From the NCBI GenBank assembly GCA_000004695.1, contig CM000150.2:224001-288000 (forward strand): a stretch of 64,000 nucleotides of DNA. Direction: 5' to 3'. The translations under genes and the position numbers were made by a program. Source of the DNA: Dictyostelium discoideum (taxonomy: Eukaryota). The notes under the pieces are model-generated. The model was not told where the DNA came from and made no database searches. It saw only the letters and a program-made list of their open reading frames with translations. The stretch's first letter is position 1. Each line of letters starts with the position of its first letter. Shown here piece by piece: positions 14,722-48,281 of the stretch.

Positions 14722-15224
14722 ATGAAGCCTAATAATATGAAACAAACAAATATTAGTCAATTTTTTGCTCCAACAAAACAACCAGAGCCAATTATAGAGG
14801 TAAAAAAAAAAAAATTGATAGTTTTTTATTTATTTTTTTTTTTATTTAAATCTAATGGGTTTTAAAATTTTTTTTTTTCATTTATTTAGGAAGGATTTGA
14901 TTCATTTTTTGATGATATACCTACAGAAGAGTTAGAACCAGATTTAAATTCTATACCAATTTCCTCTTCACAGCAAACATCTACATCAAATACCTCTTCA
15001 CAACAAACATCTTCAGCAAATACATCATCTTCAGCCACTACTACCACTACTACTAATACTAATTCACAAATACCGAAAGCACCAACAACACCATCAAAAC
15101 TAAAGCTACCAACTTCTTTCACATCAAAATCAAATACACCAACCAAATCATTACCACCATCAAATTTTAGTTTGGTAGTCAATGAACAAGAAGAAGAAAA
15201 TGAAATGAACGATAATTCAAAACC

Positions 15225-15255
<31 letters not shown>

Positions 15256-18200
15256 AATTTATTTAAAAGTAATATAACCAGTAATAGTGGTGGTAGTAGT
15301 AATGATTTATTTTCTAGATTTAAAGATGAAAAACCAAAGACTACAACTACCCTTTCTACACCTTCAAAACCATTATCGCAACCACAAAGAAATAACACAA
15401 ATGAAATATCAAAAAAAAGAAAAGAAATGGATTTTAATGAAGATGAATCGAATACAAATTATGATAATAATAATAATGATGTTGAGGATTTAGATGAGTT
15501 TTGTTTTGTTAATAAAAATAAACCATCATCATCATCATCATCATTAAATACCAATACTACAACTACACCAAAAGCACCAACTATAACACCAAAAACTCCA
15601 ACTAAAACTCCAACAAGAAGACCAGTCGTTACATATGATGAGGATGATGACGATGATGAACAAGATGATGATGAGGATGACGACGATGATGACGATGATA
15701 AAAAATCAAAATCAACAACAACGACAGCAGTAAAGAAAAAAGGTAATGCATTTGGTAAAAAAGATAAAAAAGAGATAGAAGAGAGATATTCATTCCTTGT
15801 CAATATAAAAGATGCCAATGGTAATCCAAAGGATCATCCAGATTATGATAAGAGAACATTACATATACCAGCAAGTTGTCTATCGAAATTCTCACCATTT
15901 GAAAGACAATTTTGGGATATTAAATCAAAAAACTACGATACGGTTGTATTCTTCAAAAAGGGTAAATTCTATGAACTCTACGAGAGTGATGCTGATATCG
16001 GTCATCAACAACTTCACTTGAAACTTACTGATCGTGTCAATATGCGTATGGTTGGTGTACCAGAGATGTCCTTTAATCATTGGGCTTCAAAGTTAATTCA
16101 TTTGGGTCATAAAGTGGCCAAGGTAGATCAAATGGAGACATCAATCGGCATGGCAAAGAGACAGAATGAAAAAGGTGGTCGTAATAAAAAAGATTCAATC
16201 ATTCAGAGAGAGTTAACTTCAATTCTTACCGCTGGTACACTTTTGGATGAACAAATGATCACCGATCAAACTTCAACCTATCTTATGGCCATAAAAGAGA
16301 ATGAATACGATAAACAGTATGGCGTTTGTTTTGTCGATGTATCAATTGGTGAATTCTATCTTTGTACCATTCAAGACGATGATAATCGTATGCAATTCGA
16401 AACGCTACTCCTTCAAATGATGCCAAAGGAAATCGTCTATGAAAAGGGCGCAACCTCTCCAAAAACCATCTCCATTATGAAGCGTGTTCTCTCCACTGTT
16501 AAACCAGTCATGAATGCTCGTCTCTCTCTAGAATATTGGGACCCAACAGACACTATGGAACGTATCACTCAGCTTTGTGGTGGTAAAACACCAGAGACCC
16601 TCTGTCAAATGAAAAATGAAGAATATCTAATGGGTGCATTGGGTGGTTGTATCAGTTATCTCATGGATATAAAGATTGGTAATAGCGTCGTTGAACAAGC
16701 TCGTTTCAAACGTTTCAATCCATTGGATATTGGAAACTCTATGATTTTGGATGGCCAATGCTTGGTGAACTTGGAGATATTCAACAATAGTACCGATGGT
16801 TCAACTGAGGGTACTCTTTTCAAGTTGATGGATCGTTGTACCACTGCCTTTGGAAAACGTATGTTTAGGCAATGGATTTGTAGGCCATTGGCAAATAAGA
16901 ATGCAATTGTTGATCGTCAAAAGGCAATCGAATTCCTAAGAGATAGTCCTGAAACCCTTCAAAAAGTAACGGCTATCCTCAACAAACTACCTGATCTCGA
17001 AAGAATGATCGCAAGAATTCGTGCTCAAACTTCAAAAATCTCTGATCTCATTTCAGTTTTAAATCACTTTGATAATATACATTCAAAACTATTGGAGCTA
17101 TTGGATGAAGCAGAACAAATCGAATCTATTCACCTAAGAAGTTGTCTTTTTATGGATAATCAACAAGACAACGACGATATTGATGAACAAGAAAACAGTA
17201 ACAACAACAACAACATTCGTTATTCTGGTTATCCAAATCTTAAACCCTATATTGAACGTGTTAGAAAGAGTTTTACCATTGAACAAGATCGTGTGGTACC
17301 ATCAAAAGGTTTGTTTTTAGAGTTTGATCAATGTTTAGGCAATATTCAATCATTGGAACAATCGTTTGCAAAACATTTAGAGGAACAAAAAGCTCATTTC
17401 AAGTGTAACAAAATCGAATATAAACATATGGGTAAAGAGATCTATCAAATAGAGATACCCGTTGCATTTACAAAAAAGCTTCCAGCAGGTTTCTCTTTAA
17501 AATCATCAAGCTCCAAAGTTAATAGATATCACAGTCCATTCGTTACAAAGAATCTCACCTCTTTGTTGGAAGAACGTGATACCTATGAGGTGTTATCAAA
17601 AGAGGTTTTGAAAAAGATTCTATCAAATTTCGCAATCTATTTCAATCATTTCCAAATTGCAATTACAAAACTCTCTCAATTGGATTGTCTGTTATCTTTA
17701 TATAAAGTTAGTTTTCAATCTTCAATTCAAATGTGTCGTCCCCTATTCGTCTCTAGTGATCAACGTGGTTTCATTGATGTAAAAGATATGAGACATCCTT
17801 GTATCTATTCAAAATCTGGTGATGATTTCATTCCAAATGATATATCTTTAAATACTGAAAATAATCCTCCATCTTTAATGGTTTTAACTGGTCCTGTAAG
17901 TTTTATTAATAATTGTTAAAATTTAATTAATAACTAAAATTTAAATTTTTTTATATTTTTTTAGAATATGGGTGGTAAAAGTACATTATTACGTCAATCA
18001 TGTATTTTAGTAATCATGGCACAAATGGGTTGTTATGTATCAGCATCAAGTTGCGAAATGTCAATTGTAGATAGAATTTTCACTCGTTTAGGTGCAAATG
18101 ATAATATTTTAGCAGGTCAATCAACATTTATGGTTGAATTGGCAGAAACAAGCGCAGTTCTAAAGTATGCAACCAAACGATCATTGGTTATTTTGGATGA

Positions 18201-19052: not shown

Positions 19053-21068
19053 ATGGAGAAACACCAAAACCAAGTAATTGAGGAAAATAGATCAAAACCA
19101 TTGATCAATTTAACCTTTTTTATCGATTCAAAGAGTAAATTTAAAGTTTCTAATTACACTCTATCAAAATTAATTAAAGATGAATTCGGTGGGTCAATTG
19201 CCTTTACATTGAATCCAAAGGTTGATTATGTTATAACAACATCAGCAAACTTTTTTTCAACCAAAACCACCACTTTTTTAAGTAATCAAGATCTCTCAAA
19301 AATAAAATTAATTAACGAGGATTATTTCATTTCACAACAAAAACTTGAACCAACTCAAAGAAGTAAAATTAATGATTCTTATTCAATCGGAAATAAACAA
19401 GATTCTCAAGTTGTTAATGTCTGTAAAAAAGAAAATGATGTTGTGGAAAAAGCTGATGATGATCTATTGAAAATTATCATTAACCCAAAACATATTCCAT
19501 CTGTTTGTTATGGAGCTAATGAACTAAAACAACCTTATTTTCCAGAAGAATATTTAATTTTAAAATCAAATTTATTAAGTGTATGTATTTTTTTTAAAAA
19601 AATATAAAACTTTAAATCCTCTTACTATTTATTGATTTATTAATTTATTTATTTTTTTTAGAGTACAATCATTGGTAAACAAAATACAAATAAATTTTTT
19701 TATTTAGAATTACATCAAGCAATTGATAATAATTTGAAAAAGTTTTATAGAATTTTCACACAATTTGGAAGAACTGATGAAATCCAAAAATCAAATTCAC
19801 AACATAGATATGTTAGCAATGATTTAAAAGAGGCTATGGCATTGTATTCATCAATTTACAGTCAAAAGATTGAAAGTGATAATGGATATATTGAGGTTAA
19901 AATGAATAGTATAACCAAAATTGGTTCAAAATTAAAGTTGGCTCAATTAAAACAACAAAAAGAGAATGATGTAAATGCAAATACTCACATCAAGGTTTAC
20001 AACGAAGAAACCGGTGAAGAAGAGACTGGGCAACAATCTTTGTTTCAAAGATCCTACATTGAAACCAATGTTTCTAAACTAATGGACATTATCTATAAAG
20101 AAGCATCTAAATGTTTAATTAAAAACTTTTCTGTAGAGGTCACTGAAAATGGTATTGAAACTCAACTTGGTGCTCTTTCAATGGCTCAAATTGAAGAAGC
20201 AAAATCAATATTAAATGAAATCAATAATGTTTTAAATAAAGATGGTATTGATAATCAAGAAAATTTGGAAATGCTATCATCTAGATTCTATCAATTAGTA
20301 CCATCAAAAATTAGTACAAAAAAGAATAGGGATTCATCGAAATCAGTAATCAATTCTTTTGAATCGTTGAATCAACTTTCAGAGTTGATGAATATGATGA
20401 AAGATTTAACCAATTCATTTAATTCAAACAAAACAACAAGTGAATCAAAAAATCATTTGGATATGAAATATTATGCATTGAATACCCACATTGAACATCT
20501 TCATCAAGCAAGTGCTGGCTATCAAATTTTCATTCGTAATTTCCTATCGAACCCACACCACCAAAAAGCCATTGATAATGGAGAAATCAAAATTCTCAAT
20601 TGTTACAGATTGGATAAGAAATTAGAAAGTGATAATTTTCTTGATGTAGGAAATGTGCAATATTTATATCATGGTAGTAAACCACAAAATCTTGTTGGTC
20701 TATTATCAAGAGGTATTCTTCCACCAGATTATGTCAAACAAATTGGAGGTAAAAGAACTGATTTTGGATATCTTGGAAGTGGTATTTACTTTTCAGACGA
20801 TGTGGTTTCCTCAACTTACACCTCACCAATTGGTGAAAAGGGTTCTAGATTTATCATAATGTCATCTGTTTCATTGGGAAAGGTTAAAGAATTTAGTAAA
20901 ATTCAACCATCATTACAATGTGCACCATCAGGCCATCATAGTTGCAAAGGTTTGAAATCAACTCCAACCAACCCAACAGATTTTAAAAACAATGAATATG
21001 TAGTATTCAATCCAAATCAATCAAAATTATCTTTTTTAATTGAATATATTGAAAATTATAAAAAATAA
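19053..21068 (+). CDS. Poly(ADP-ribose) polymerase family protein with BRCT-like N-terminal domain, WGR domain, PARP regulatory and catalytic domains; join(19053..19580,19662..21068), ~644 aa
   Basis: The catalytic H-Y-E signature is present: YLYHGSKPQNLVGLLSRGIL (H-G-S), GSGIYFSDDVVSSTY (Y) and NNEYVVFNPNQSKLSFLIEY (catalytic Glu). These align with PARP1/2/3 catalytic cores. The WGR domain spans the intron (LKSNLLS|TIIGKQ...FYRIFTQFGRTDEIQ). Exon 1 has BRCT-like hydrophobic periodicity. The intron (19581-19661) has donor GTATGT and acceptor TAG. Confidence 0.75.
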
Positions 21069-24893: not shown

Positions 24894-26686
24894 ATGTTTA
24901 AATTAAGTGATCCTTTTGATTATGAAAATGATTATAGTTACTCTCAAATAAATCCAATTTCATTTTGGGATGAAGTTGCAAAAAAATTTGTTCACTGGTA
25001 TGTAATTCAGAAAAATAAAAAAAAAAATAAAAAAACAAAAAAAAAAAACAAATATTAACATATAATAATACAAAATAAAAAAAAAAAAAAAGGGATAAAA
25101 TATATGATAAAGTTTATAGTGGTGATGAAATATATCCAGATTGGTTCCAAGGTGGTGAATTAAATACATGTTATAATGTTTTAGATAAACAAGTTAAAAA
25201 TCCATTAAAAAGGGATAAAGATGCATTAATTTATGAATGTCTATATTTAAAGAAAACTGTAAAATTAACATACTATCAATTATATGAAAAAGTATGTGAA
25301 TTTTCAAGAGTACTTTTAAATATAAATATTTCCAAAAATGATAACGTTTTAATTTATATGGCAAATACTCTAGAACCATTAATTGCAATGTTATCATGTG
25401 CTCGTATTGGCGCAACTTTTACAGTTTTATTCGAAGGTTATCCAGTTAAAAGTTTAATCGATAGAATTGAAACAATAACCCCAACATTAATAATTACATC
25501 AAATTATGGTATATTAAATGATGAATTAATAACATTTACACCAAATTTAAAAGAAGCAATTCAACAATCAGCTTTTAAACCAAATCATATTATCACTCAT
25601 TTTAGAAATGATTATGAAGACATTGAATTTAAAAATATTATAGGAACTATGACAATCATACCAAATACATTAGATTGGGATAAAGAAATTCAAAAAATAA
25701 AATATAATAATCAATCACCATTTTACGAATATGTACCTGTAGAATCAAGTCATCCATTAAGTATTCATTTTACAAGTGGTACAACTGGTAATGCTAAAGC
25801 GGTTGTAAGAGGTAATGGTAGTAATTTAGTTGGATTAGTTTATAATTGGTATAGCAGTATGTCTTCTAAAAAATATGATGATTCAGTTTACTTTTCACAT
25901 TCAAGTATTGGTTGGATTACATTTCATATGGGTTTAATTGGATCATTAGCACTTGGAAATACATTTGTAATGTTTGAAGGTGGTATTACAAAACCAATTC
26001 ATTATGAACATTATTTATGGGCAACTATTGAAAAACATAAAATCAACACATTTTTAACATTGGCAAAAACAATAAGATACCTTATAAAGAATGATCCGGG
26101 AGCTACTAATATAAATTCAAAATATGATTCATCAAGTTTACTTTCAATTTGGATAGCAGGTGAAGTTATTGAACAATCAATTCCTGAATATATTGAAAGT
26201 AAATTAAAATGTTGTTCCGGAAATGTATATGGACAAACTGAAGGTGGTTGTATATCATTATTTAATTGTAAAAGAATATATAATAAACAGTATAATACAC
26301 TAATTAATCCAACTCCATTTTTAAAACCATCAATATTTTCAGAGGATGGTATTGAATTACCGGATAATCAAGTCGGTGAAATTGTATTCAAGTTACCAAT
26401 GCCACCAAGTTTTGCCACAACATTTTATAAAAATGAATTACTTTATAAAAAGATTTTCAATAAATTTCCAGGTTATTATAATAGTGGTGTTATAACATTT
26501 AAAAAAGAAATTGACTATTATGGTATTGTTTCAAGGGCAGATGATCAAATTAAAATTGGTGGCTTTAAAGTTGATTTAAATCAAATTGAAACATCAATTT
26601 TAAAACATCCATTAGTTTTAGAATGTTGTTCAATTGCTATATATCATCAAGATTTAAAAAATGTTCCAATTGGATTATTAGTTTTA

Positions 26687-26782
<96 letters not shown>

Positions 26783-27043
26783 CCAGATAATTCATCATCA
26801 TCATTATCATTATCATTAATTGATTTAAAAAATCAAATCAATAAAATTATTAAAAATGATATGGATTTTTATTCAGAATTAACAAAAATTATAATTGTTC
26901 CTCAACTACCAAAGACAAAAAGTGGTAAAATTCCAAGATCGATAGTTTCAAAGTTTTTAAATGAACCAAATTATCAATTACATGAATCATGTGATCATGA
27001 AGTTTTTTACTTAATAAAAGAGTTATATGTAGAAAATAATTAG
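24894..27043 (+). CDS. Short-chain acyl-CoA synthetase (acetyl/propionyl-CoA synthetase, ACSS-like, AMP-binding superfamily) with internal poly-Gln tract; join(24894..24997,25093..27043)
   Basis: Exon 1 ends ...ISFWDEVAKKFVHW. Exon 2 continues DKIYDKVYSGDEIYPDWFQGGELNTCYNVLDKQV, the ACSS N-domain pattern W..PY.KV...WF.GG.LN.CYN.LD. The AMP-binding core is IHFTSGTTGNAKAVV, with linker/A8 GEIVFKLPMPP and the ATP-binding Lys in LPKTKSGKIPRS. The intron is GTATGT..AAAG in phase 2. A (CAA)32 tract encodes Q32 at 26689-26783. Confidence 0.75.
26689..26783 (+). repeat. Pure (CAA)n trinucleotide repeat (~32 units) encoding poly-Gln inside the acyl-CoA synthetase CDS
   Basis: An uninterrupted CAACAACAA... 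run is visible in the sequence. It stays in frame within the CDS. Confidence 0.9.
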
Positions 27044-31225: not shown

Positions 31226-31306
31226 CTCTGTTGTATGTAAAATTATGAGAATTGAAAAATAAAAAAAATAAAAAAAAAATAAAAAAAAATAAAAAATAAA
31301 AATTAG

Positions 31307-31343
<37 letters not shown>

Positions 31344-31653
31344 GTAAAAACAAAACTTAAAAAAAAAAATAACAATTACTAATTAAATTAGGAAATTGTT
31401 TGGTTGGTGTATGGATTTTAAACTTAATTATTTGCAGATTTATAAATTAATTAATATTAATTCCATTTAATATTGTTTTTTTTTTTTATTTTTGTTTTTT
31501 TAAAAAAAAAAAATTAAATTTAATTTTTTATTTTTTTTTTTGTAATGTCATCAATTTTTTATTTTTTATTTTTTATTTTTTATTTTTTATTTTTTCTTTT
31601 TTATTTTTTATTTTTTTTTTCTTTCTCCGATAGACATTAAAATTTTAAAAACA
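31226..31653. promoter_or_regulatory. Shared divergent (bidirectional) promoter region between the MPC1-like (- strand) and MPC2-like (+ strand) genes
   Basis: There are 428 bp of A/T-rich sequence between the two start codons (31225 and 31654). The genes are head-to-head. Confidence 0.4.
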
Positions 31654-35065: not shown

Positions 35066-36046
35066 TTAAGGAATTTCATTTAATAAATTTAAAATTTCAG
35101 TAAAAGAAGGACGTTTTAAAGGATCTTGATGCCAACAAGCTTGAATTAAATGAGATAATTGATAAGGCCAAGCATTTGGAATTGGTGGACGTAATGATTT
35201 TGTAGTGACAGCCAAAGCCAATTGAACGGAATCCAAACCAGAGTAAGGTAATTCACCAGTTCCCAATTCCCAAAGGATGATACCAAATGCATAGACATCA
35301 ACTTTTTCAGTGTAATCCTCACCCATCAATAACTCTGGAGACATCCAAATTGGGGAACCAATGGATTTTGTCATTTCCGTTGATTTACTCTTTAGTTTTG
35401 ATAGACCGAAATCACAAATCTTGACATTCATATGTTCATCCAATAAAAGATTTAAACTCTTGATGTCACGATGAATGACGCCACTAAGATGAAGGTAATT
35501 CATACCTTGAGCGATTTGAATGGCCAATTTCTTGTAGAGTTGCATATTCATTTTAATCTTTTTAGAGTGTAAAGCGTCATACAATGATCCACCAGGTAAA
35601 TATTCAGTGATAAAACATAGATTTGGTGGTGCAGTACATGCTGCCATCAATAATACTATATTTGGATGTCTTAATCTAGATAGGATGGTCAATTCTTTTC
35701 TAAACTCCTCCAATACTTGATTGTTTACATCCTCATTGATTTTAATTTGTTTAATAGCAACTGAACTTCCTCTCCATAATCCTTTATATACAACTCCAAA
35801 TGTTCCTTCTCCAAGTTTACTTGATATCTTTAACTCTGAAAATGAAATTTCAATATCTGAAAAATATTGTTGTTGTTGTGACGGTGGTTCTACCACGCTA
35901 CCACTATTCTTTAATATATTACCTTGATTATTATATTGATTTGGACTATGATTATTTATTAAATGATTATTTTGATTTTGATTATGATTAAATATATTAT
36001 TTTGATTATTATTATTATTATTATTATTGTGATTATTATTGTTGTG

Positions 36047-36145
<99 letters not shown>

Positions 36146-37816
36146 TTGGTTATTATTTTGATTATTAAATTGTTGTATATTATTTAAAATGTTATTTCCT
36201 AGTGGACTATGATTAACTACATTATTATTATTAAATAAACCAAAACTATTATTAAAATTGCCATCCAATGGACTATTATTATTACTTGTATCTTCAAAAT
36301 AAATAAATGGTTGGTGTTGTGGTTGTGGTTGTGGTTGTGGTTGTTGTTGGTATTGTTGTTGTTGTTGTTGATGATGTTGTTGTTGTTGATATTGTTGCTG
36401 TTGTTGATTATTATTTTGATTATTTTGGTTGTTATTTGTTAATTCATCAATTTCAGATAAGAAAAGATGTTGGGACTCAATTGGTGGTGAGGATTGTAGT
36501 TGTGATGATGGTGGTGGTGGTGGTTTGAAAAGATTTTCAAAGGGTATAATATTTAAACCTATATATTGAACAAATTCATGAAAAGGTAAAGTTGTAAGAG
36601 GTAAAAGAGAGGCATCAGCACCAAATAAAGATAATTTTAAAGTTGAAACTCCACCGGTTTTATTATCTTTAACAGAGTTAAAAACATCTATTATATGACA
36701 TGCTTGTTGTGGTGAAAATTTACGAATATTAATATTTGTAGAACTTGCTCCATTTGCCAAACTACGTAAAATTGGTGGTGTACTAGGTATATTAATATTA
36801 TTGGTATTATTATTATTGGTATTATTATTATTATTAATATTATTAAGATTAGTATTATTAATTATTATTGTTGAACCATTATTTGAACCACCTGAACCAC
36901 TTGTACCATTACCACTACTACCTCCACTTCCACTATTACCACCACCACTACCACTATTACCACCACCACTACCACTACCACTATAGACCATTGATTTTGT
37001 ATAGGAATAAGTTTCAATCATTTGTTTAAGTGTTAATGATAATATCATATTTGGTGATTGAACTTGAGGTAAAGCATTTGGATACAATAAACCCAGTGAA
37101 AATAAAAACTGTGAATTAGGTGATGGTGAAATATCTGGATATAGACCTGTGATATATCGTATCAATTGTTGAAATGATTTTAAATAACCTTTACCTTCAT
37201 CCATTTGTGTGAAATGATGATAACAAAAATAAATCTCTTCCCATCCCATATCTTTAAAACTTCCAACACTAACATCTGATAAACTAAATTCATCAAATGA
37301 ACTATTTCTTTGATGATGTCCACGTATAAAATTCATTTTACTTTGTTGTTGTTGTTGCTGTATTTGTTGTTGTTGTTGTTGTTGTATTTGTTGTTGTTGT
37401 ATTTGTTGTTGTTGTATTTGTTGTTGCTGTATTTGTTGCTGTATTTGTTGTTGTTGTTGTTGTTGGTGTTGTATTTGATGTTGTTGTGGCTGTGGTTGAT
37501 TATTATTTTGAATGATTTGAATTTGTTGTGCTTGTTGATGTTGATGATGAGATATATGCTGTATTATATGATTTTGGTTCATGTTTGGTGATAATCCACC
37601 AAAATGTTGTTGATGAATTTGATGTTGTTGGTGTTGAAAGTTACTTATATTTATATTTATTCCATTATTATTATTACCATTGTTATTATTATTATTGTTA
37701 TTATTATTATTATTATTTAATGCATTACCACCAATTGGTGCTATGACAGGACTTGAATTCCCAAAATAAACATTTGGAACTAAATATTGGTTTTGATAGA
37801 ATCCTCCCCCTTTCAT
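35066..37816 (-). CDS. Tyrosine-kinase-like (TKL group) protein kinase with long Gln/Asn-rich N-terminal region; single exon, 916 aa
   Basis: The C-terminal catalytic domain is complete: LGEGTFGVVYKGLWRG, VAIKQI, HRDIKSLNLLL, DFGLS, SPIWMSPE, DVYAFGIILWEL. The N-terminal 600 aa are poly-N/poly-Q encoded by (AAT)n/(CAA)n. The ATG is at 37816 and the stop at 35066-35068. Confidence 0.8.
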
Positions 37817-38136
37817 GTTATTCTGTTTATATGTAAAATGCTCTAAACTTTTACACTTTTCTATTATAATGGGTATTGTAATATTTTTATAATTTTTTTT
37901 TTTTTTTTTCTTTATTTTTCTACTTTTTTTTTTTTTTAAAAAAAAAATAAAAATTAAAAATAAATTAAAATAAAGAAAAAAAAAAAAGAATAACCTAAAA
38001 GAGGAATTTATTATTATACTGTATTATTATTATATTTCCCTTAGGCTAATGAAAAAAAAAGAGAGAGAAAAAAAAAAAAAGAAAAGAGAAAAAAAAAAAA
38101 AAAAAAGTGTTAGTGTCAGTTAAAAAAAAAAAAAAG

Positions 38137-38189
<53 letters not shown>

Positions 38190-38301
38190 TAAGTGATTAA
38201 ATGTTGATGATAATGATAATAATTCTTTTGAAACTTCTGTTATTTATATTGTAATTATAATTCTTTAATTTTACTTTTTTTTTTTTTTTTTTTAATTTTT
38301 T

Positions 38302-38333
<32 letters not shown>

Positions 38334-38679
38334 AAAATATATTTAGAACCATATATTTGAAAAATTTTAAAAAATATATCCTATATATAAATTTATAAAT
38401 TTACAATGCGACTAATATTAAATATATTTATATATTGTAATGATATAGTAAAATAATGTATATGTTTTTTATCTATATATTTTTTTTATTTTTTTTGTTG
38501 GTTTTTTTTTTTTTTTTTTATTTTTTTTTTTAATTTTTATTTTATTTTTTTTTTATTTTTATTTTTTTTATTTTTTTTTTATTATTTTTTTATTTTTTTT
38601 TGAATAAATTGGGACTATTTTAAACACAACTAAAAAAACATTGCAATTTTGTGTGTATGTGAAAATAATATTAGAACCT

Positions 38680-38725
<46 letters not shown>

Positions 38726-38749
38726 AAAAAAAAAAACCAAAATTAATGG

Positions 38750-38782
<33 letters not shown>

Positions 38783-38803
38783 AAAAATTTTAAAAATGAT
38801 TTT

Positions 38804-39216: not shown

Positions 39217-41817
39217 TTAAAGATAACCTTCAGATAAAACCAATTTCGTAATAATATCAATAATGATTGAAGAGGAAGTTGAATAAGATGGTTGATCAAT
39301 TTTTTGTTTTAATAAATGATTGAATAAGATTCTGATCTCTTTTAATAATACAATGATTTTACCAGAGGTAGCTTTAAATTTCAGCCATTTATCGAGGGAA
39401 ATGGTTTGATAGGATTTATCGATTTCAATATTACCACCCAAAGAGAATAATAGTAAAGTTAGGGGAGATAGATTTGTAATATGATGAAGGAATAGTTTCG
39501 AAGTTTTAACCTTATCATTGTAGATAATGAAAGGGTAAACCCATTCACCCTCTTTAAAGTTTGTTGATCTTGGATGAATGAAAACTCTTTCCAATGGTTT
39601 TCCAGGACCACAATTTGGAGGTTTAGTGAGTAATAGCAATGATTCCGGAGAGTATTTATTCTTTATAGCACCACTTGCAGTTTGGCTATACTTTGCATCT
39701 GGATAATCGATTCTTGCAATCTTTGGATACATACCAGCACATAATACACTTGTAATGATTTTACTCTTACTTGAATTTGAATTATAAATATAACCAACAA
39801 ATTCATCAATACAATCATTTGAATAATTGTTACCCTTTTGCTGTTGTTGTTGTTGAAGTTTTGCAATTTTCTTTGCAGTTATTGATTGTGGTAAGAAACC
39901 AATCTCTGATAGAATTTCAACAAATTGTAATTTCAAATCTTGAATAGTACGTAGTGTTGGTATTGATAAGTAATTTTCACGACAAAATTGATATTCATTA
40001 CCATCTTGTATTGATTTTCTCCATGAATTATAAGCATTGATAAGAGTTTGATGATCTGATTGATTTGGTGATGAAAATTTATCCATTGGACGTATAGTTT
40101 TATCAGGTGGATTTAAAAATGGTGATTTATAATTTAATGTTGCAGCAATTGTTAAAATTGGATCTAAACATCTAAATATACAACCAAATAATAACATTTT
40201 ACCAATATAAACATCAACTGGTAAACTTGCTAAATGATAACCTAATGGTGTTAATTCTTGTTGCTGTTGTTGATTGATTTTTAAAGCATCAATTGAAATT
40301 AATTCATTAATTGATGATTGAATTTGTTCAGAACTTGGTGGTTCAATTGCACGATTTAAAAAGTCTTGAATGGTTGTATTTTTATTATTTTTTAAGAAAA
40401 GTTTAACATGAAGACAAAGTTGTTGAAGTGAAGTTCTCAATATCTCTGGTGTATCTTGATCTTGAAGTTGTGATTCCATTGATTTAGTGAAAACCTTAAA
40501 ACATAAACCAGAGGAGGTACGACCTGCACGACCAGCTCTTTGACGACATGATGCTTTCGAAGTCCATTCTTCAGACATTACAGAGTTACCAGTGATAGAA
40601 TTAAATGTCATTTGATTGACTCTACCACAATCTACAACGATTTCAACATCTTCAATGGTGATAGAAGTTTCAGCTATATTTGTAGCTATTACAACTTTGA
40701 CCCTACCATTTGGTGCTTTTTCAAATACTTTTTGTTGATCCTTTGGTGATAATGAACTATGTAATGGTACACACCAAATTCTTTGACAAATAGCTTCAGT
40801 AAACGTTGAAATTGGTTTACCTAATCTTGAACATAACTCTAAAATATCCGATAAACCTGGTACAAACACTAATATTGATTTATCTTTTTTTAAAACTCCA
40901 TTAACCAAATGTAAAATCAATGATTCAACAACATCTAAATTAATTCTTTTTTGATCAATACTAATTTTTAATTGATTTAATTTATTATTTAAAATTTCTT
41001 CTTCATCTTCATTTGTATCATTTGTAGTTGTTGTTGTAGTTGTAGTAGTGGTTGTTGTAATTGAATCTTTATAGTTTGGATTATATTTATTAATTAATGG
41101 TAAAACTTCATTAATATAAATATTTTTAACAGGAAAAGTGAAACCAGGAATTGAAAAAATACTATCATCAGTACATTTGAAATAGTTTGCAATTTGTTTA
41201 GCATTTAAAGTTGCAGACATTAAAATGATTTTCAAATCTTTACGTTTTGAAATGATTTCTCGTAAAATGATTAATAAAAAGTCATTATCAGTTGAACGTT
41301 CGTGAACTTCATCAATGATGATATGTGATAGATCAGAGATGTTTGATACATCCAATATTCTTCTTAATAGAATACCGGTGGTACAAAACAATAGTCTGGT
41401 GGATTGCGACCTCTTTGATTCATTTCTAATTTGGTAACCAACCAAACCTCCAATTGAGTTCTCAACAGTACCACAATTCCATTCATAGGAAACTCTCTCT
41501 GCCACACCAATAGCTGAGATTCTTCTAGGTTGTGTACAAACTATATTACACTCTGATCCTTTCTCTTGGGAAATGAATGATTCTAAAATGTATTGAGGAA
41601 TTTGAGTACTCTTACCACAACCAGTCTCTGCTGTAATAACAACGACTTGATTCTCTTGTAAACATTTTAAAAATTCTTTCTTTCTCTTAAAAACTGGTAA
41701 TGATTCTCTCTTTTTAATCACACCTTTATCAACTTTAATTAATCTATCATATTCATTCTTTAATTCTTTATTAATTTTTAATTTTTCTTTTTCATTTAAT
41801 ACTTTTTTATAATTATA

Positions 41818-41874
<57 letters not shown>

Positions 41875-42426
41875 TTGTTGTTTTTGTACTTTATTATTAT
41901 TCTTTAAAGTTTCAATATTATTTGAATTATTATTATTATTATTTGAATTATTCGTATTATTATCAATTATAATTGGAGTATTAAGTGGTTTTAATTTATT
42001 TGATAAAATATTTGAAATATTTTGATCCAACCAAGATATTATATTAAAAATCATTGGATTACCAATTGATGATTGTAATTCATTTAAAATTGAACGAATA
42101 ACTATTTGATTTGTAATTGGTGTTGATTTTGCTGATGAAAAAGTTATAATTGGTAATTGAAATGGATAAGTAATTAATGATGTTGGTAAATAGATATTAC
42201 ATTTAAATGATGATGATGGTGATTGACCATTATAAATAATATGTTGATTATTTGAACTAAATTCAATTTCATTATTCATATAAATCGATTGTAATGCTAA
42301 TATTTCATTTTCAATAATTTCTTTACTTTGTTCTTTAATGTCATCATCATTTGTAAATTGATTATTATTGTTATTATTTTCATTTAATTTAAATAAATTT
42401 AAATAAACTTTAAAGAATACTATTAA

Positions 42427-42470
<44 letters not shown>

Positions 42471-43299
42471 TGATATCATTATAAATTGATTTTGTATTAT
42501 TTATAAGTTTTATAGTATCTCTTGGTAAAATGGCTAAATTTTCAAATTCACTTTTAGTTTTATTATAGATTGGTTTATTTGGTTCAATTAAAAGTGAAGG
42601 TAATGGTGATTGATTGATATCAATCTTATCAATACCAATTGTTTTTGGTCTAAAATGTTCTGGTAATTGTGAATTTGATACATTTAAACATAACCATTCA
42701 ATTATACCATGAATATTATTATGATCACAAACATTTACCAATGCTAATAAAATATCTTCCTTTTTAAATCCCAATTCAACCAATGTTGATAAAATAATCT
42801 CTTTTTCTTTTTCATCCAATTGTTTTCTTTCTTCATATGTTGATGTTGATGCTATATCACTACTACTACTACTAACATCATTTTGACATAACTCCAATAC
42901 TAGGGAATGTACAATTCTCATTGCTTCTTCAGACATATGAATTTGTGGTATCATTTGAGTATGAGTTCTAACTGGTTCCGCATTTTCAGCTTCAAATTTT
43001 AATTGTTGTTCTAAAAGTAGACGTTGCTTTTCTTCCTCTTGTTTTGATTCTTGATCTAATTGCATCCAAAAGGGTGTATATTCTGGTGGGAATAATTTAT
43101 AAATAGTTGTATTACCACATAAACTAAAGAGTGCTACCAATGCTGTATATGATTTCGCCTCTTGTGTAGTATCGTATATTGTCGTCGTTATATATTCTTT
43201 CTCGGTGATTTGTTTCTTTTTACCTTCAAATTTTAATATAACCTTAAATTTATGTTTACCTGGTTTACTCTTTACTTCTATATAATTTGGTCTATCCAT
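39217..43299 (-). CDS. DEAH-box ATP-dependent RNA helicase, DHX57-like architecture (UBA domain, RWD domain, helicase core, HA2/OB C-terminal region); 1360 aa
   Basis: The UBA-like segment is EKEIILSTLVELGFKKEDILLALVNVCDHNNIHGIIEWL. The RWD-like segment is EILALQSIYMNNEIEF...YLPTSLITYPFQLPII. Helicase motifs are TGCGKSTQIPQ (I), IIDEVHERS (II, DEVH), SATLNA (III), TNIAETSITIEDV (V) and QRAGRAGR (VI). The ATG is at 43299 and the stop at 39217-39219. The ORF is continuous. Confidence 0.85.
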
Positions 43300-43402
43300 T
43301 TGATTCTTTTGACAATATTCATTCTTTTTTTTTTTTTTTTTTTTCAGTTAATAACTTACAAAAAAATAAGGGAAAAAAGAGAGAATAATGATATTAATAT
43401 AT

Positions 43403-43660
43403 TCAACTTACTAAATATTGAACAGGTTGTTTACCTGTCCATCTTGGTTTCTCTGGTGCCAATGGTAAACCAGTTGTTGGTGCCACTACTGAATCTTTTA
43501 CTCCACTAACCTTTCCACCCTTTTTATCTGATGTTGGTGGTACTGGTGCACTTGTCTCTTTTTTTCCTCCTTTTCCGCCTTTATCAGGAGTTGGTGCTGG
43601 TGCACTTTTACCACCTTTACCTGTTGGAGGTGGGGGTGTTGGTGTTGATCCTTTTGCCAT
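43403..43660 (-). CDS. Small (85 aa) Pro/Lys/Gly-rich basic protein, or alternatively a 5' coding exon (43411..43660) spliced onto the downstream helicase
   Basis: The ATG at 43660 opens MAKGSTPTPPPPTGKGGKSAPAPTPDKGGKGGKKETSAPVPP...PRWTGKQPVQYLVS-TGA. A canonical GTAAGT donor sits immediately after ...QPVQYL (43410-43405). The acceptor AAG at 43325-43324 would join in phase 0 to NEYCQKNQ-MDRPNYIEV..., in frame with the helicase ATG only 103 bp downstream. Confidence 0.35.
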   Translation of the reverse strand: MAKGSTPTPPPPTGKGGKSAPAPTPDKGGKGGKKETSAPVPPTSDKKGGKVSGVKDSVVAPTTGLPLAPEKPRWTGKQPVQYLVS

Positions 43661-44068
43661 CTATCTATCTATCTCCTATCTCTACTTATTAACTATTAGG
43701 AAAAATAATAAAGTAGTTCAAAAAAAAAAAAATGAAAAAAAAAATAAAAAAAATAATTCAATTTTGCGAAAAAGCAAAAAATTTTCATTTTTTTCCTTTT
43801 ATTTTTTTATTTTTTTTTTTTAAATTATCATTTAATTTATTTTTATATTTTTTTATATGAATTTAGTATATATATAGATAAATAGAGGACTCAAAAATAC
43901 AAAATGAAATAAAATATAAAAAAAAATGAATGTAAAATTCAATTTTTTTTTTTTTTTTTTCTCTTAAATTAAAAAGTAAATTTTAAAAATCAGGTTCAAT
44001 GGCATTATATAATGTTAAAGCAGTATCAAGATATGAAGATTTAGAGAATGTAAATTCAAAATTTAAGA

Positions 44069-44104
44069 AAAAGAAAAAGAAAAAGAAAAAGAAAAAGAAA
44101 AAGA
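44069..44104. repeat. (AAGAAA)n hexanucleotide microsatellite
   Basis: The run AAGAAAAAGAAAAAGAAAAAG... is visible. Its antisense is the (TTTCTT)n that the ORF track reads as SFSFSFS. Confidence 0.8.
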
Positions 44105-44177
44105 AAAGAAGAAGTGAAAAACTTGAAAAAACTTATTATAGAAAGAGTACAGCAACTCATATATAGGGAATAAACGA

Positions 44178-44328
44178 AATTTATGATAATATGATAACGA
44201 ATCAATATTTAGACAATCTGTCAAAAGATTTGATAAGGATTTATTCAAATATTATATTATATTTGAATAAATCCTTATCAAATCTTTAAATAGATTGTCT
44301 AAATATTGATTCATTATCATATAATCAG
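44178..44328. repeat. ~150-bp near-perfect palindrome (two ~65-70-bp inverted arms about 92% identical, separated by an 8-bp TATATTAT spacer); candidate hairpin-RNA precursor or foldback/MITE-like element
   Basis: The left arm is ATAATATGATAACGAATCAATATTTAGACAATCTGTCAAAAGATTTGATAAGGATTTATTCAAATAT. The reverse complement of the right arm is ATTATATGATAATGAATCAATATTTAGACAATCTATTTAAAGATTTGATAAGGATTTATTCAAATAT. It lies in an intergenic region with no ORF. Confidence 0.6.
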
Positions 44329-44899
44329 CTTTGGATAAATTAAGATCAATGATATAATCAATTATTTCAAAATATTATAAAGATGAAAATGATTAATCAT
44401 TCGATGTATAAATATTGTTCCAATGTCACTGGTGGGAATTCAGATCAATCATTTCAACTAATTATACAAATCGTACCATTAATAATGTTACTCGCCCAAT
44501 TAGAACACTCAAAGAGTGTGTAAATCAAACACTTAAAGAGAACGACTTACAAAGAAAATTCAAAGATTAGCTATCACAGGTACTTCACTCTTACTTGGCT
44601 CATGAGGGTCACGGCACCTTTTAATAATAATAAAAAAAAAAATTCAATTTAAAATTATAGATAATAATAATAATTAAAATCAACTAATACCAATTTAAAT
44701 TTGTAGGACATCTTCATGGTACAAAACAAGTCAAATTTCAAAAAAAAAAAAAAAAAAAAAAAAAAACTAAAATAAAACAAATATCAAAATAAATATAATA
44801 AATGGGATTATTTAATTTATTTTTTTATTTTTAAAAAATCATTTAAAAATGTATCACACTATATTTTGAAATTTCACAATTATTTTGATATATATTAGT

Positions 44900-45000
44900 A
44901 GTTGGTAGTGATGATGGTGATGGTGGTGATGGTGGTGATGATGGTGATGGTGGTGATGATGATAGTGGCTGTAGTTGTGGTGGTGATGGTAGTGGTGGTG
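44900..45000. repeat. Imperfect (GGTGAT/GGTGGT)n hexanucleotide repeat, apparently non-coding
   Basis: A GGTGATGGTGGTGATGATGGTGATGG run is visible. It is read by the ORF track as poly-His on the minus strand and poly-Val/Met on the plus strand, with no start context or flanking coding signal. Confidence 0.6.
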
Positions 45001-45689
45001 GCGGTAATTGTTGTTAGTTTTGTCCACTACTTGAAGCCTCAATATTATCATTTTTTAATAAATATCAAATTATATTTTTATTATGGCCAGATTCTTTTTT
45101 ATTATTTTATGAAAACTTAATAATAAAATGTTATTTATTATTTATTAATAATTGATATTAGTTTGTTATAAATCTTAATTTTATTTATCCAGCAATTTTT
45201 TTTTTTTTTTTTTTTTTTTTATTCTTTACTTGATAAGAAAGGTATGTTTCATTTGAAAAAACAATAATATCTTTTTTAAAAATAAAAAAAATAATCATTA
45301 ATCAAATAACTAACTTTATATTTATTTTAAATTATTTATACATAATATCTTTACAAAATACTTTTAAAAAAAGAAATTAAAAATAAAAATGCAATTAATA
45401 TTTTTTATTTATTCTTTTTTAAAAATTATTTAAAAATGATTCTATGTATATAATTAAAATTTATCTCTTCAATATAAAAATAATCCAATACAAATTATTT
45501 TTATTTATCTCTAATAATATTATTAAATACGATAAAAAAGAATGACTGTATTTAATCCACAAACAATGACCCTCCATTTTATTTAGGCATTTAATTAGAT
45601 AAACAAAAATATTTAAAAAAAAAAAAAAAAAAATTAGATAGATATTTTCTAAGATAAGATAATCTCAAATAATGATAAATGATTTATTA

Positions 45690-46976
45690 TTATTTTTTGT
45701 CAAGTTCCCTATTATCCCTAACTAATCTGAAACAATTACTATCTTCTGGATCAAATTCAATAAGACCAGCTATTTTTAGGATTTGAATTGATTCTTGTGG
45801 TGAAACACCTTCTGTTAGTTCCAATGATTTGTCTTTACTTGAAATATATGATACTGGATTTGTTGAAAAACGATGCAATACTTGTTGTAAAACATATTTA
45901 AAAGTTTCTTTTCTTAATTCATAGTTTTCAATAGATTGAGTTCTTCTTTTCTTTTCTAAAATTTCTTCACTTTCATCCTCATTACTTTCATCATTTTCAC
46001 TTTCATTTTCATTTTCATTTTCATTTTCATTTTCATTTTCATTTTCATTTTCATTTTCAGTTTCACACTCACTTTCACTTTCTTTTTCATTTTCATTTTC
46101 ATTTTTATTTTCATTTTCAATTTCATTTTCATTTTCAATTTCATTTTCAATTTCATTTTCAATTTCATTTTCATTTTCAATTTCATTTTCATTTATTTCC
46201 TCGTACTCCAAATCATAAAGATAATTTTTATCAATAGTTTCATCTTCATATTCATCATCATCTTCTTGTTTTTTTTTTTTTTTATCTTTTTTTTTATCTT
46301 TTTCTTTATCTTCCTCATCCTTACGAATAAGAAGACGATCAAAATGTTTTTCAATTATTTCTGTTATTAATAATTGATTATTTTTTATGTTATCATTTAG
46401 TGAATCAACTCCTTTAATTTCATGTTCCAATTCTTGAGGAATTTCCGATAATGGATCGATTCTATATTTAATAATTTTACAAATTGTTTCACTTTCATTC
46501 AATAGTATAGTTTGTTCAATTAATTTATTTTTTTTATTTTCAAGTTCTTGCTTTAAAAAATCAAAATACATTTTTAATTGCTCTACTGATAAAACTAAAT
46601 CTGCTTCTAATCTAGTTTTAGCATCATCAAGATTAGCTATATTTTCAAATGATTCTTCTTGAGTTTCTTCTTTTAATTTCCGAATTTCATCTTTTAAAAT
46701 TTTATTTTGATTTTCTGATATTCTAATTCCCTAATAAACACAATAAATTCTAATTAGAATTTAAATAATAATAAATAATATAAATAATAATAATAATAAA
46801 TAATAAATAATAATTACTATTGGTTTATTTTTTTGAGAGTTTAAGTTTTTTTTATGTTTTGATAGTAATACTCGATTTTGATTTCTTACTGAGTTCAATT
46901 TATCACTAAGTTCATCTAAACTAGCATTTTTTAAAAACGATATATCTTGATCTTTGTTGATTAATGATTTTTCCAT
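45690..46976 (-). CDS. Coiled-coil protein with acidic (E-N-E-I-E-N)n repeat region and conserved globular C-terminal domain; complement(join(45690..46730,46818..46976)), ~400 aa
   Basis: Exon 1 is MEKSLINKDQDISFLKNASLDELSDKLNSVRNQNRVLLSKHKKNLNSQKNKPI with donor GTAATT. Acceptor TTATTAG precedes exon 2, which begins GIRISENQNKILKDEIRKLKEE, in phase 0. The central (GAAAAT)n region encodes the ENEIEN repeats. The C-terminal roughly 80 aa are non-repetitive (...ILKIAGLIEFDPEDSNCFRLVRDNRELDKK). Confidence 0.5.
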
Positions 46977-47373: not shown

Positions 47374-48197
47374 TTAATGTTTTGAAGAAGTTGATAAAAA
47401 TGAGGTTAAACCAGCACCTAAAGAAATTGAGATGATATAATTATAAACTAATGGAACATTTTTGAAAATGATGAATGAAAAGATTGAAACGCAAATTAAG
47501 AAAACAGCATTATTATACATGATGGATGCTGCGATAGCTTCGTGTGAAGTGACGAGGGCTTGAACTTCTTTTTGTGCTGCTGCGAATTTCTTTTTATCAC
47601 CAACTTTATTCTTTGATGCAATTGAGATATGTTCTCTGCTGGCTGATAATCTATTTATTTATTTATTTATTTATTATTATTATTATTATTAAATTTAGTT
47701 AATAATTTGTAATGGATGAAAATTAACAAAATTAAAATTAAAATTAAAAAAAAAAAAAACTTACTTTAATCTCTTCATTCTGTAAATGTTATTGTAGGCA
47801 AAAGTGAGAACAATTGCGGCGAAAAGGGTAACTGAACCATAAATAATCATATGATCATCAATTGACATGAAAAAGATGGCATGATATAAATCTATATATT
47901 TGAATTATTAAAAATGTTAGTTTTTAATTCTTTATTTTCATCATTATTTTCTTTTTTTTTTTATTTATATTTGTAAAAAAAAAAAAAGAAAACAGTGTAA
48001 TTAAACACCAACAAAGTTTTTATTTTTTTTTTTTTTATTTTTTTTTTTTTATAAAAAAAAATAAAGAAATATTAAATTGATTACTTACAAACTGGGACTA
48101 AAGCTACAATTAAAGAGTTGATGAAATAAACAATACGTTGTTCAATTGAAACGTCATTTTCGTGACGGAAAGCTGAGAATTCATCTACTTCGGCCAT
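47374..48197 (-). CDS. ssr3: Translocon-associated protein subunit gamma (TRAP-gamma / SSR3); complement(join(47374..47650,47765..47891,48089..48197)), 170 aa
   Basis: The spliced product is MAEVDEFSAFRHENDVSIEQRIVYFINSLIVALVPVYLYHAIFFMSIDDHMIIYGSVTLFAAIVLTFAYNNIYRMKRLKKLSASREHISIASKNKVGDKKKFAAAQKEV...ASIMYNNAVFLICVSIFSFIIFKNVPLVYNYIISISLGAGLTSFLSTSSKH. It aligns along its length with human SSR3 ([49 protein letters not shown] ... [50 protein letters not shown]). Both introns are GTAAGT..TAG. The gene is absent from the ORF track. Confidence 0.8.
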
Positions 48198-48281
48198 TTT
48201 GTTATTAAATGTTTATAAAAATATAATAATATGGGTAATAAAAAAATGAAAAATTAATTTTAAAAATTTGTGATCATGCTG

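Follow-up and report, generated by a model that had tools for sequence, protein, structure and literature searches.

The window, by which we mean the whole stretch of 64,000 nucleotides that was analysed, is 75-80% A+T and carries a series of protein-coding genes to the left of a long palindrome. The palindrome lies next to the 5' end of a DEAH-box helicase gene, in a region that also holds a T-rich motif and a long A-tract. The features are as follows.

14890-17916, MutS homologue gene of the MSH6/MSH3 type, with a long N-terminal extension, from Pfam
19662-21065, PARP gene, from Pfam
25079-27040, gene for an acetyl-CoA-synthetase-like AMP-binding enzyme, from Pfam
35069-38023, protein kinase gene, from Pfam
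39217-43323 (exon 2) and 43412-43660 (exon 1), minus strand, DEAH-box helicase gene with one intron between these exons, left of the palindrome
43833-43859, plus strand, T-rich promoter/start-site motif ending in G, with the predicted pri-mir-7103 start at G 43859
43885-44729, plus strand, pri-mir-7103 interval (Liao 2018 Table S3 minus 224,000), from poly(A)-selected RNA-seq coverage
44184-44255, plus strand, 5' arm of the stem-loop, very probably that of mir-7103, from the repeat search and folds
44256-44327, plus strand, 3' arm of the same stem-loop, from the repeat search and the whole-hairpin fold
44740-44766, plus strand, A27 tract, from the sequence, 10 nt past the pri-mir-7103 3' end

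The helicase (39217-43299, minus strand) has its best protein-database match in D. purpureum, at 66% identity, which assigns the window to a group-4 Dictyostelium. The type of the MutS gene at 14890-17916 agrees with msh6, which we take to lie on chromosome 1.

A repeat search of the window places the hairpin at 44184-44327, as a palindrome of 144 bases whose two arms of 72 nt each (44184-44255 and 44256-44327) abut with 0 nt between them. Direct comparison of one arm with the other gives 66 of 72 positions complementary (92%) without a gap, and beyond both outer ends the complementarity breaks off sharply. On the plus strand, the six non-complementary pairs are A.A at 44188/44323, C.A at 44198/44313, G.U at 44220/44291, C.A and A.A at 44222-44223/44288-44289 (pairs 44222/44289 and 44223/44288) and U.U at 44253/44258, the last of these within the 6-nt loop that the RNA fold leaves. 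The stem contains two uninterrupted helices, one of 23 bp (44199-44221/44290-44312) and one of 29 bp (44224-44252/44259-44287). Folding of the surrounding 171 nt (44170-44340) yields one long stem on either strand, as the preliminary description had anticipated, with -82.8 kcal/mol for the plus strand and -83.4 kcal/mol for the minus strand; since these energies are nearly equal, the structure alone gives no choice of strand. Dinucleotide shuffles (n=200) fold at -23 +/- 3.4 kcal/mol and none of the 200 matches the palindrome (z about -17.7), which far exceeds chance. For the 144 nt of the hairpin alone, the folding energy is -81.4 kcal/mol (-0.565 kcal/mol/nt).

The near-perfect palindrome of about 150 bp that the preliminary description had reported is therefore borne out, and several of its details are corrected by these measurements. 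Its limits of 44178-44328 located the element correctly and were 1-6 nt too wide; the inverted identity of 92% is confirmed, for arms that measure 72 nt instead of 65-70 bp; and the 8-bp AT spacer proposed between the arms is absent, being the apex of the palindrome itself. The mismatch patch that it singled out (GTCAAAAG versus ATTTAAAG) is real, with three of the six non-complementary positions, and the other three fall outside it.

This is the sole complex palindrome in the 64 kb. Within the window, an arm 21-mer is found at the two arms only (0.01 matches expected by chance), and the remaining long inverted repeats are low-complexity pairings of an A-run with a T-run. In two divergent intergenic regions (31250-31625 and 38080-38800), 'inverted repeats' of up to 109 nt and 71-88% complementarity consist of A-runs (up to about 45 nt) opposite T-rich runs, with no structured element.

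Table S3 of Liao 2018 (PMC6161686) lists intergenic miRNAs, each with a pri-miRNA interval taken from poly(A)-selected RNA-seq and an upstream motif. It gives pri-mir-7103 as DDB0232428:267885-268729, orientation +, with the T-rich/G start-site motif TAATTTATTTTATATTTTTTATATG at DDB0232428:267833-267859 and the first read 26 nt past the motif. In the window, TAATTTATTTTTATATTTTTTTATATG is present once, at 43833-43859 (plus strand), and its 27 nt equal the published coordinate span. It differs from the printed TAATTTATTTTATATTTTTTATATG by two single-T insertions (one T in each of two T-runs) and 0 substitutions, and the runner-up site in the window would need 3 substitutions. Other rows of this machine-read table likewise contain motif strings that fall 1-3 letters short of their coordinate spans, and we therefore take the two missing T's to have been lost in text extraction. 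Window and DDB0232428 coordinates differ by an offset of exactly 224,000. Together, the motif match and this exact offset identify the window as D. discoideum AX4 chromosome 1, 224001-288000, in plus orientation, and put the published pri-mir-7103 at 43885-44729 on the plus strand, where it encloses the palindrome. The palindrome thus lies inside the published interval, on the published strand and downstream of the published motif; as the fold cannot pick a strand, the plus orientation of the hairpin is taken from the publication.

The pri-miRNA intervals were defined by read coverage reaching across the predicted hairpin (Liao 2018, PMC6161686), and the palindrome is the only hairpin of the required stability in this one. 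Indeed, when windows of 110 and 150 nt are folded along 43885-44729, energies below -0.2 kcal/mol/nt, the threshold for a miRNA hairpin (Liao 2018, after Kozomara and Griffiths-Jones 2014), are reached only where the window overlaps the palindrome, and the best of the others has -0.16 kcal/mol/nt. The value for the hairpin itself is far lower (-0.565 against -0.2 kcal/mol/nt), and its length of 144 nt and its energy per nucleotide are both within the range published for D. discoideum hairpins (105-150 nt; -0.52 to -0.73 kcal/mol/nt). Furthermore, every possible 19-bp core is at least 89% paired, wherever in the stem the duplex sits, compared with the 60% or more of paired bases asked of a miRNA duplex. 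As the only qualifying hairpin of its interval, the palindrome is, with high confidence, the precursor stem-loop of ddi-mir-7103 (chromosome 1, DDB0232428, about 268184-268327, plus strand). The link between hairpin and miRNA is by containment in the published interval. The locus is already known, as a published D. discoideum miRNA gene, so that the call is correct and is no discovery. Accordingly, the earlier proposal of a long hairpin feeding DrnB-dependent small RNAs is supported, whereas the statement that the region is 'gene-free' holds for protein-coding genes only, the region being an annotated miRNA gene.

Tiles of the arms, in RNA and in DNA letters, matched no Dictyostelium paper in full-text literature searches, nor do they occur in the supplements of Liao 2018, Edelbroek 2024 and Meier 2016; the latter result is neutral, as these files cover other miRNAs. 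Literature searches by name for mir-7103 and mir-7105 returned nothing, and the arms match none of the known mature miR-1176, miR-1177, miR-7097, can_D1-D3 and mir-1178 to mir-1185. An Rfam scan of the window gave nothing at any gathering threshold. At permissive E-values, MIR1888, mir-1890, mir-759 and mir-890 appear below threshold (the best, MIR1888, with 42.5 bits compared with the 72 needed), and these matches are a generic long-hairpin signal.

The predicted start at G 43859 lies 199 bp from the helicase ATG (43660, minus strand), in divergent orientation, so that the helicase gene and pri-mir-7103 have a common divergent promoter region that is short and has 13% G+C. From this predicted start it is 325 nt downstream to the base of the stem, comparable with the measured start-to-stem distances of 281 nt in pri-mir-1176 and 116 nt in pri-mir-1177 (Liao 2018, PMC6161686). 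At the other end, the A27 tract, 10 nt beyond the transcript, is possibly an internal A-tract enabling oligo-dT capture of pri-mir-7103, or else marks a limit of read mapping. Its position fits the remark that internal A-stretches permit poly(A) selection of pri-miRNAs (Liao 2018 section 2.4, PMC6161686); in the same study, poly(A) reads cross the hairpins of 14 intergenic miRNA loci.

Read on the minus strand, the same tract (44766-44739) is T27 followed by G, 412 nt upstream of the hairpin and facing both the hairpin and the helicase gene. It resembles the published pri-miRNA start motif (T25+G in mir-1177 and mir-7105). The T27 run could be no more than the A27 tract of the plus-strand transcript end, and antisense transcription through the hairpin from this site is possible. 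An identity of the locus with mir-7105, considered on account of this motif, was dropped: mir-7105 is on chromosome 2, and the motif and coordinates of mir-7103 fit exactly.

In D. discoideum miRNA biogenesis generally, stems are diced into duplexes of about 21 nt with 2-nt 3' overhangs by DrnB, a nuclear Dicer-like RNase III, acting with RbdB. DrnB and the dsRNA-binding protein RbdB, found in nuclear foci, are needed for miRNA maturation (Meier 2016), and drnB- cells accumulate unprocessed miRNA transcripts (Liao 2018, PMC6161686). All 17 miRNAs of an earlier study (Avesson 2012) are strongly reduced in drnB- cells (Liao 2018, PMC6161686). Since mir-7097 is credited to Avesson 2012 by Meier 2016, the number series to which mir-7103 belongs suggests that it is among these 17 DrnB-dependent miRNAs, and that it was presumably first reported in Avesson et al. 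2012.

We picture the following course for mir-7103. The poly(A)-selected plus-strand transcript extends from just 3' of the T-rich/G motif through the hairpin and folds into the near-perfect 72-bp stem with its 6-nt loop. DrnB and RbdB would dice this stem into duplexes of 21 nt with overhangs of 2 nt, and one strand of the duplex would then be loaded into an Argonaute. A stem of 72 bp could give up to three successive, adjacent phased duplexes, and phased adjacent duplexes have been reported for mir-1180 and mir-7102 (Liao 2018, PMC6161686).

Within the pri-mir-7103 interval there is also an ORF of 55 codons (43999-44166, plus strand) that reads MALYNVKAVSRYEDLENVNSKF-K14-RRSEKLEKTYYRKSTATHI and stops 18 nt before the stem. 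Its K14 run is encoded by an (AAAAAG)n microsatellite (44066-44110), three short ATG-ORFs precede it, and its codon score of 0.175 lies between the null and coding distributions. It may represent a miPEP-like peptide, the remains of a decayed gene or a chance occurrence. In the 3' part of the interval, a GC-richer patch at 44560-44615 (gctatcacaggtacttcactcttacttggctcatgagggtcacggcacc), followed by TTTT, neither matches Rfam nor folds strongly. Beyond the interval, 44885-45025 is a 9-nt periodic repeat of the GGTGATGGT type. On the plus strand it would encode a Gly/Asp/Ser/Cys-rich peptide ending in NCC, with a possible splice acceptor before it, and on the minus strand it holds a His-rich ORF of 65 codons; either a small gene so far unannotated or just a microsatellite could account for the repeat.

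The D. purpureum genome offers a view of the age of the locus. There, the TRAP-gamma gene lies 327 nt upstream of the helicase gene (L001 8543-8870), and the two are separated by simple A/T low-complexity sequence that holds no hairpin of a similar kind. The window has its TRAP-gamma orthologue at 47387-48209, and relative to the D. purpureum syntenic site the segment 43660-47387 is about 3.7 kb of extra sequence. It includes the palindrome and an acidic-repeat ORF of 293 codons (45690-46571, minus strand) with no Pfam match. The length of the hairpin, its near-perfect pairing and its absence from D. purpureum together suggest that mir-7103 is a young, lineage-specific and possibly weakly selected miRNA.

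How far a young locus of this kind has acquired a role is the subject of the alternative that survives best. The palindrome could be a real hairpin small-RNA locus and yet a transient proto-miRNA, diced because its transcript folds, with no selected function or target. We regard this as possible, if on the whole unlikely. The unusually long, near-perfect stem has the traits described for newly evolved miRNAs, no D. discoideum miRNA except mir-1177 is conserved even in D. firmibasis, and loss of miRNAs gives minor phenotypes, indicating weak selection on individual miRNAs (Edelbroek 2024). D. purpureum lacks the locus at the syntenic site, and the 6 of 72 positions at which the arms differ form no clear compensatory pattern. 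The general developmental regulation of D. discoideum miRNAs (Liao 2018, PMC6161686) weighs on the other side. Furthermore, a proto-miRNA status concerns function and not identity, and is compatible with the explanation of the palindrome as mir-7103.

A more specific idea about origin, which we consider rather improbable, is that part of a protein-coding gene was duplicated in inverted orientation to give the stem of mir-7103, and that this parent gene is the natural target of miR-7103. Young plant MIRNA genes are said to arise by inverted duplication of their target gene, in a model reportedly due to Allen et al. (2004). The 5' arm (44184-44255) is free of stop codons in three of its six frames (e.g., DNMITNQYLDNLSKDLIRIYSNII), which may hint at an origin in coding sequence; as a rough guide, single 72-nt frames would be open in about 10% of cases at this A+T content. 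A second hint is the region 43980-44620, which is of higher complexity and slightly GC-richer than usual D. discoideum intergenic DNA and contains the 55-codon ORF (43999-44166) just before the stem. The codon scores of the ORFs in this region (0.15-0.18) fall between the null and coding distributions (mean -0.33 and 95th percentile 0.23 for the small-ORF null; mean 0.39 and 10th percentile 0.19 for true coding sequence). Within the 64-kb window, no parent sequence related to the arms is found. If a coding parent were found, an amoebozoan miRNA would for the first time have a documented origin and target.

The preliminary description also entertained a MITE-like or foldback element, for which we find no support. 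On such a reading, a transposon derived from thug-S, DDT or Tdd would fold by chance, and any small RNAs would be transposon siRNAs. It is true that the entire element is an inverted repeat and that the multicopy thug-S element gives rise to some D. discoideum miRNAs. However, no target-site duplication exists at or near the ends of the palindrome, where no direct repeat abuts and any 4-5-mers common to both sides are AT-rich and out of register. The 64-kb window contains no second or partial copy, no paralogue of the arms at the DNA or peptide level and no tRNA genes, which serve as retroelement landmarks. As the arms abut, the element also lacks an interior enclosed by terminal repeats. In addition, the Liao 2018 analysis that contains mir-7103 left out intronic and multicopy thug-S loci, and because these are excluded from its Table S3, mir-7103 counts as a stand-alone intergenic locus. 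A metagenome scan with an arm 22-mer gave one match, of 26 nt, in a bacterial-looking contig of 35% GC with no palindrome, and this is a chance match. We consider a transposon origin of this kind highly improbable.

Equally far-fetched is a true mir-7103 hairpin elsewhere in 43885-44729, with the palindrome an incidental inverted duplication and at most a cruciform or fragile site: the assignment by interval containment would allow it, but among the other windows of 110 or 150 nt none has a fold more stable than -0.16 kcal/mol/nt, compared with -0.565 for the palindrome, and the published intervals represent read coverage across the predicted hairpin (Liao 2018).

Identification of the palindrome as the mir-7103 stem-loop adds nothing to the biology of the locus, which is already annotated as a miRNA gene of the DrnB pathway. 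It serves as a positive control: from raw sequence alone, a real miRNA precursor was recognised and its pathway correctly named. The analysis adds two minor points, the gapless 72-bp palindrome, at the 'young miRNA' end of the range, and the segment of about 3.7 kb that is absent at the D. purpureum site; both fit published work in which dictyostelids gain and lose miRNA modules quickly.

Compared with known systems, the locus shows no known difference from published ddi-mir-7103, with which it shares coordinates, strand and the upstream T-rich/G motif. ddi-mir-1185 and other intergenic D. discoideum miRNAs (Liao 2018 Table S1) are likewise intergenic and have a T-rich motif ending in G, although their hairpins have no sequence similarity to that of mir-7103. 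The hairpins of the same table are DrnB-dependent, and the palindrome is in their range of length and energy; its gapless 72 bp put it at the long, near-perfect end of the D. discoideum intergenic miRNAs. The miRNAs described by Edelbroek 2024 likewise have unusually long hairpins with 0-1 mismatches in the duplex and are species-specific, from which the authors infer a recent origin, but they come from other species and have other sequences than mir-7103. The multicopy miRNAs derived from thug-S are, like mir-7103, small RNAs of the DrnB/RbdB pathway made from hairpin-forming sequence; they sit in a repeated DNA transposon, whereas mir-7103 is single-copy in the window and lacks a target-site duplication. 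Further afield, young plant MIRNA genes differ from mir-7103 in having a parent or target gene, of which none is found for mir-7103 within the 64-kb window. They resemble it in their long, near-perfect foldback, in their abutting arms and in being lineage-specific.
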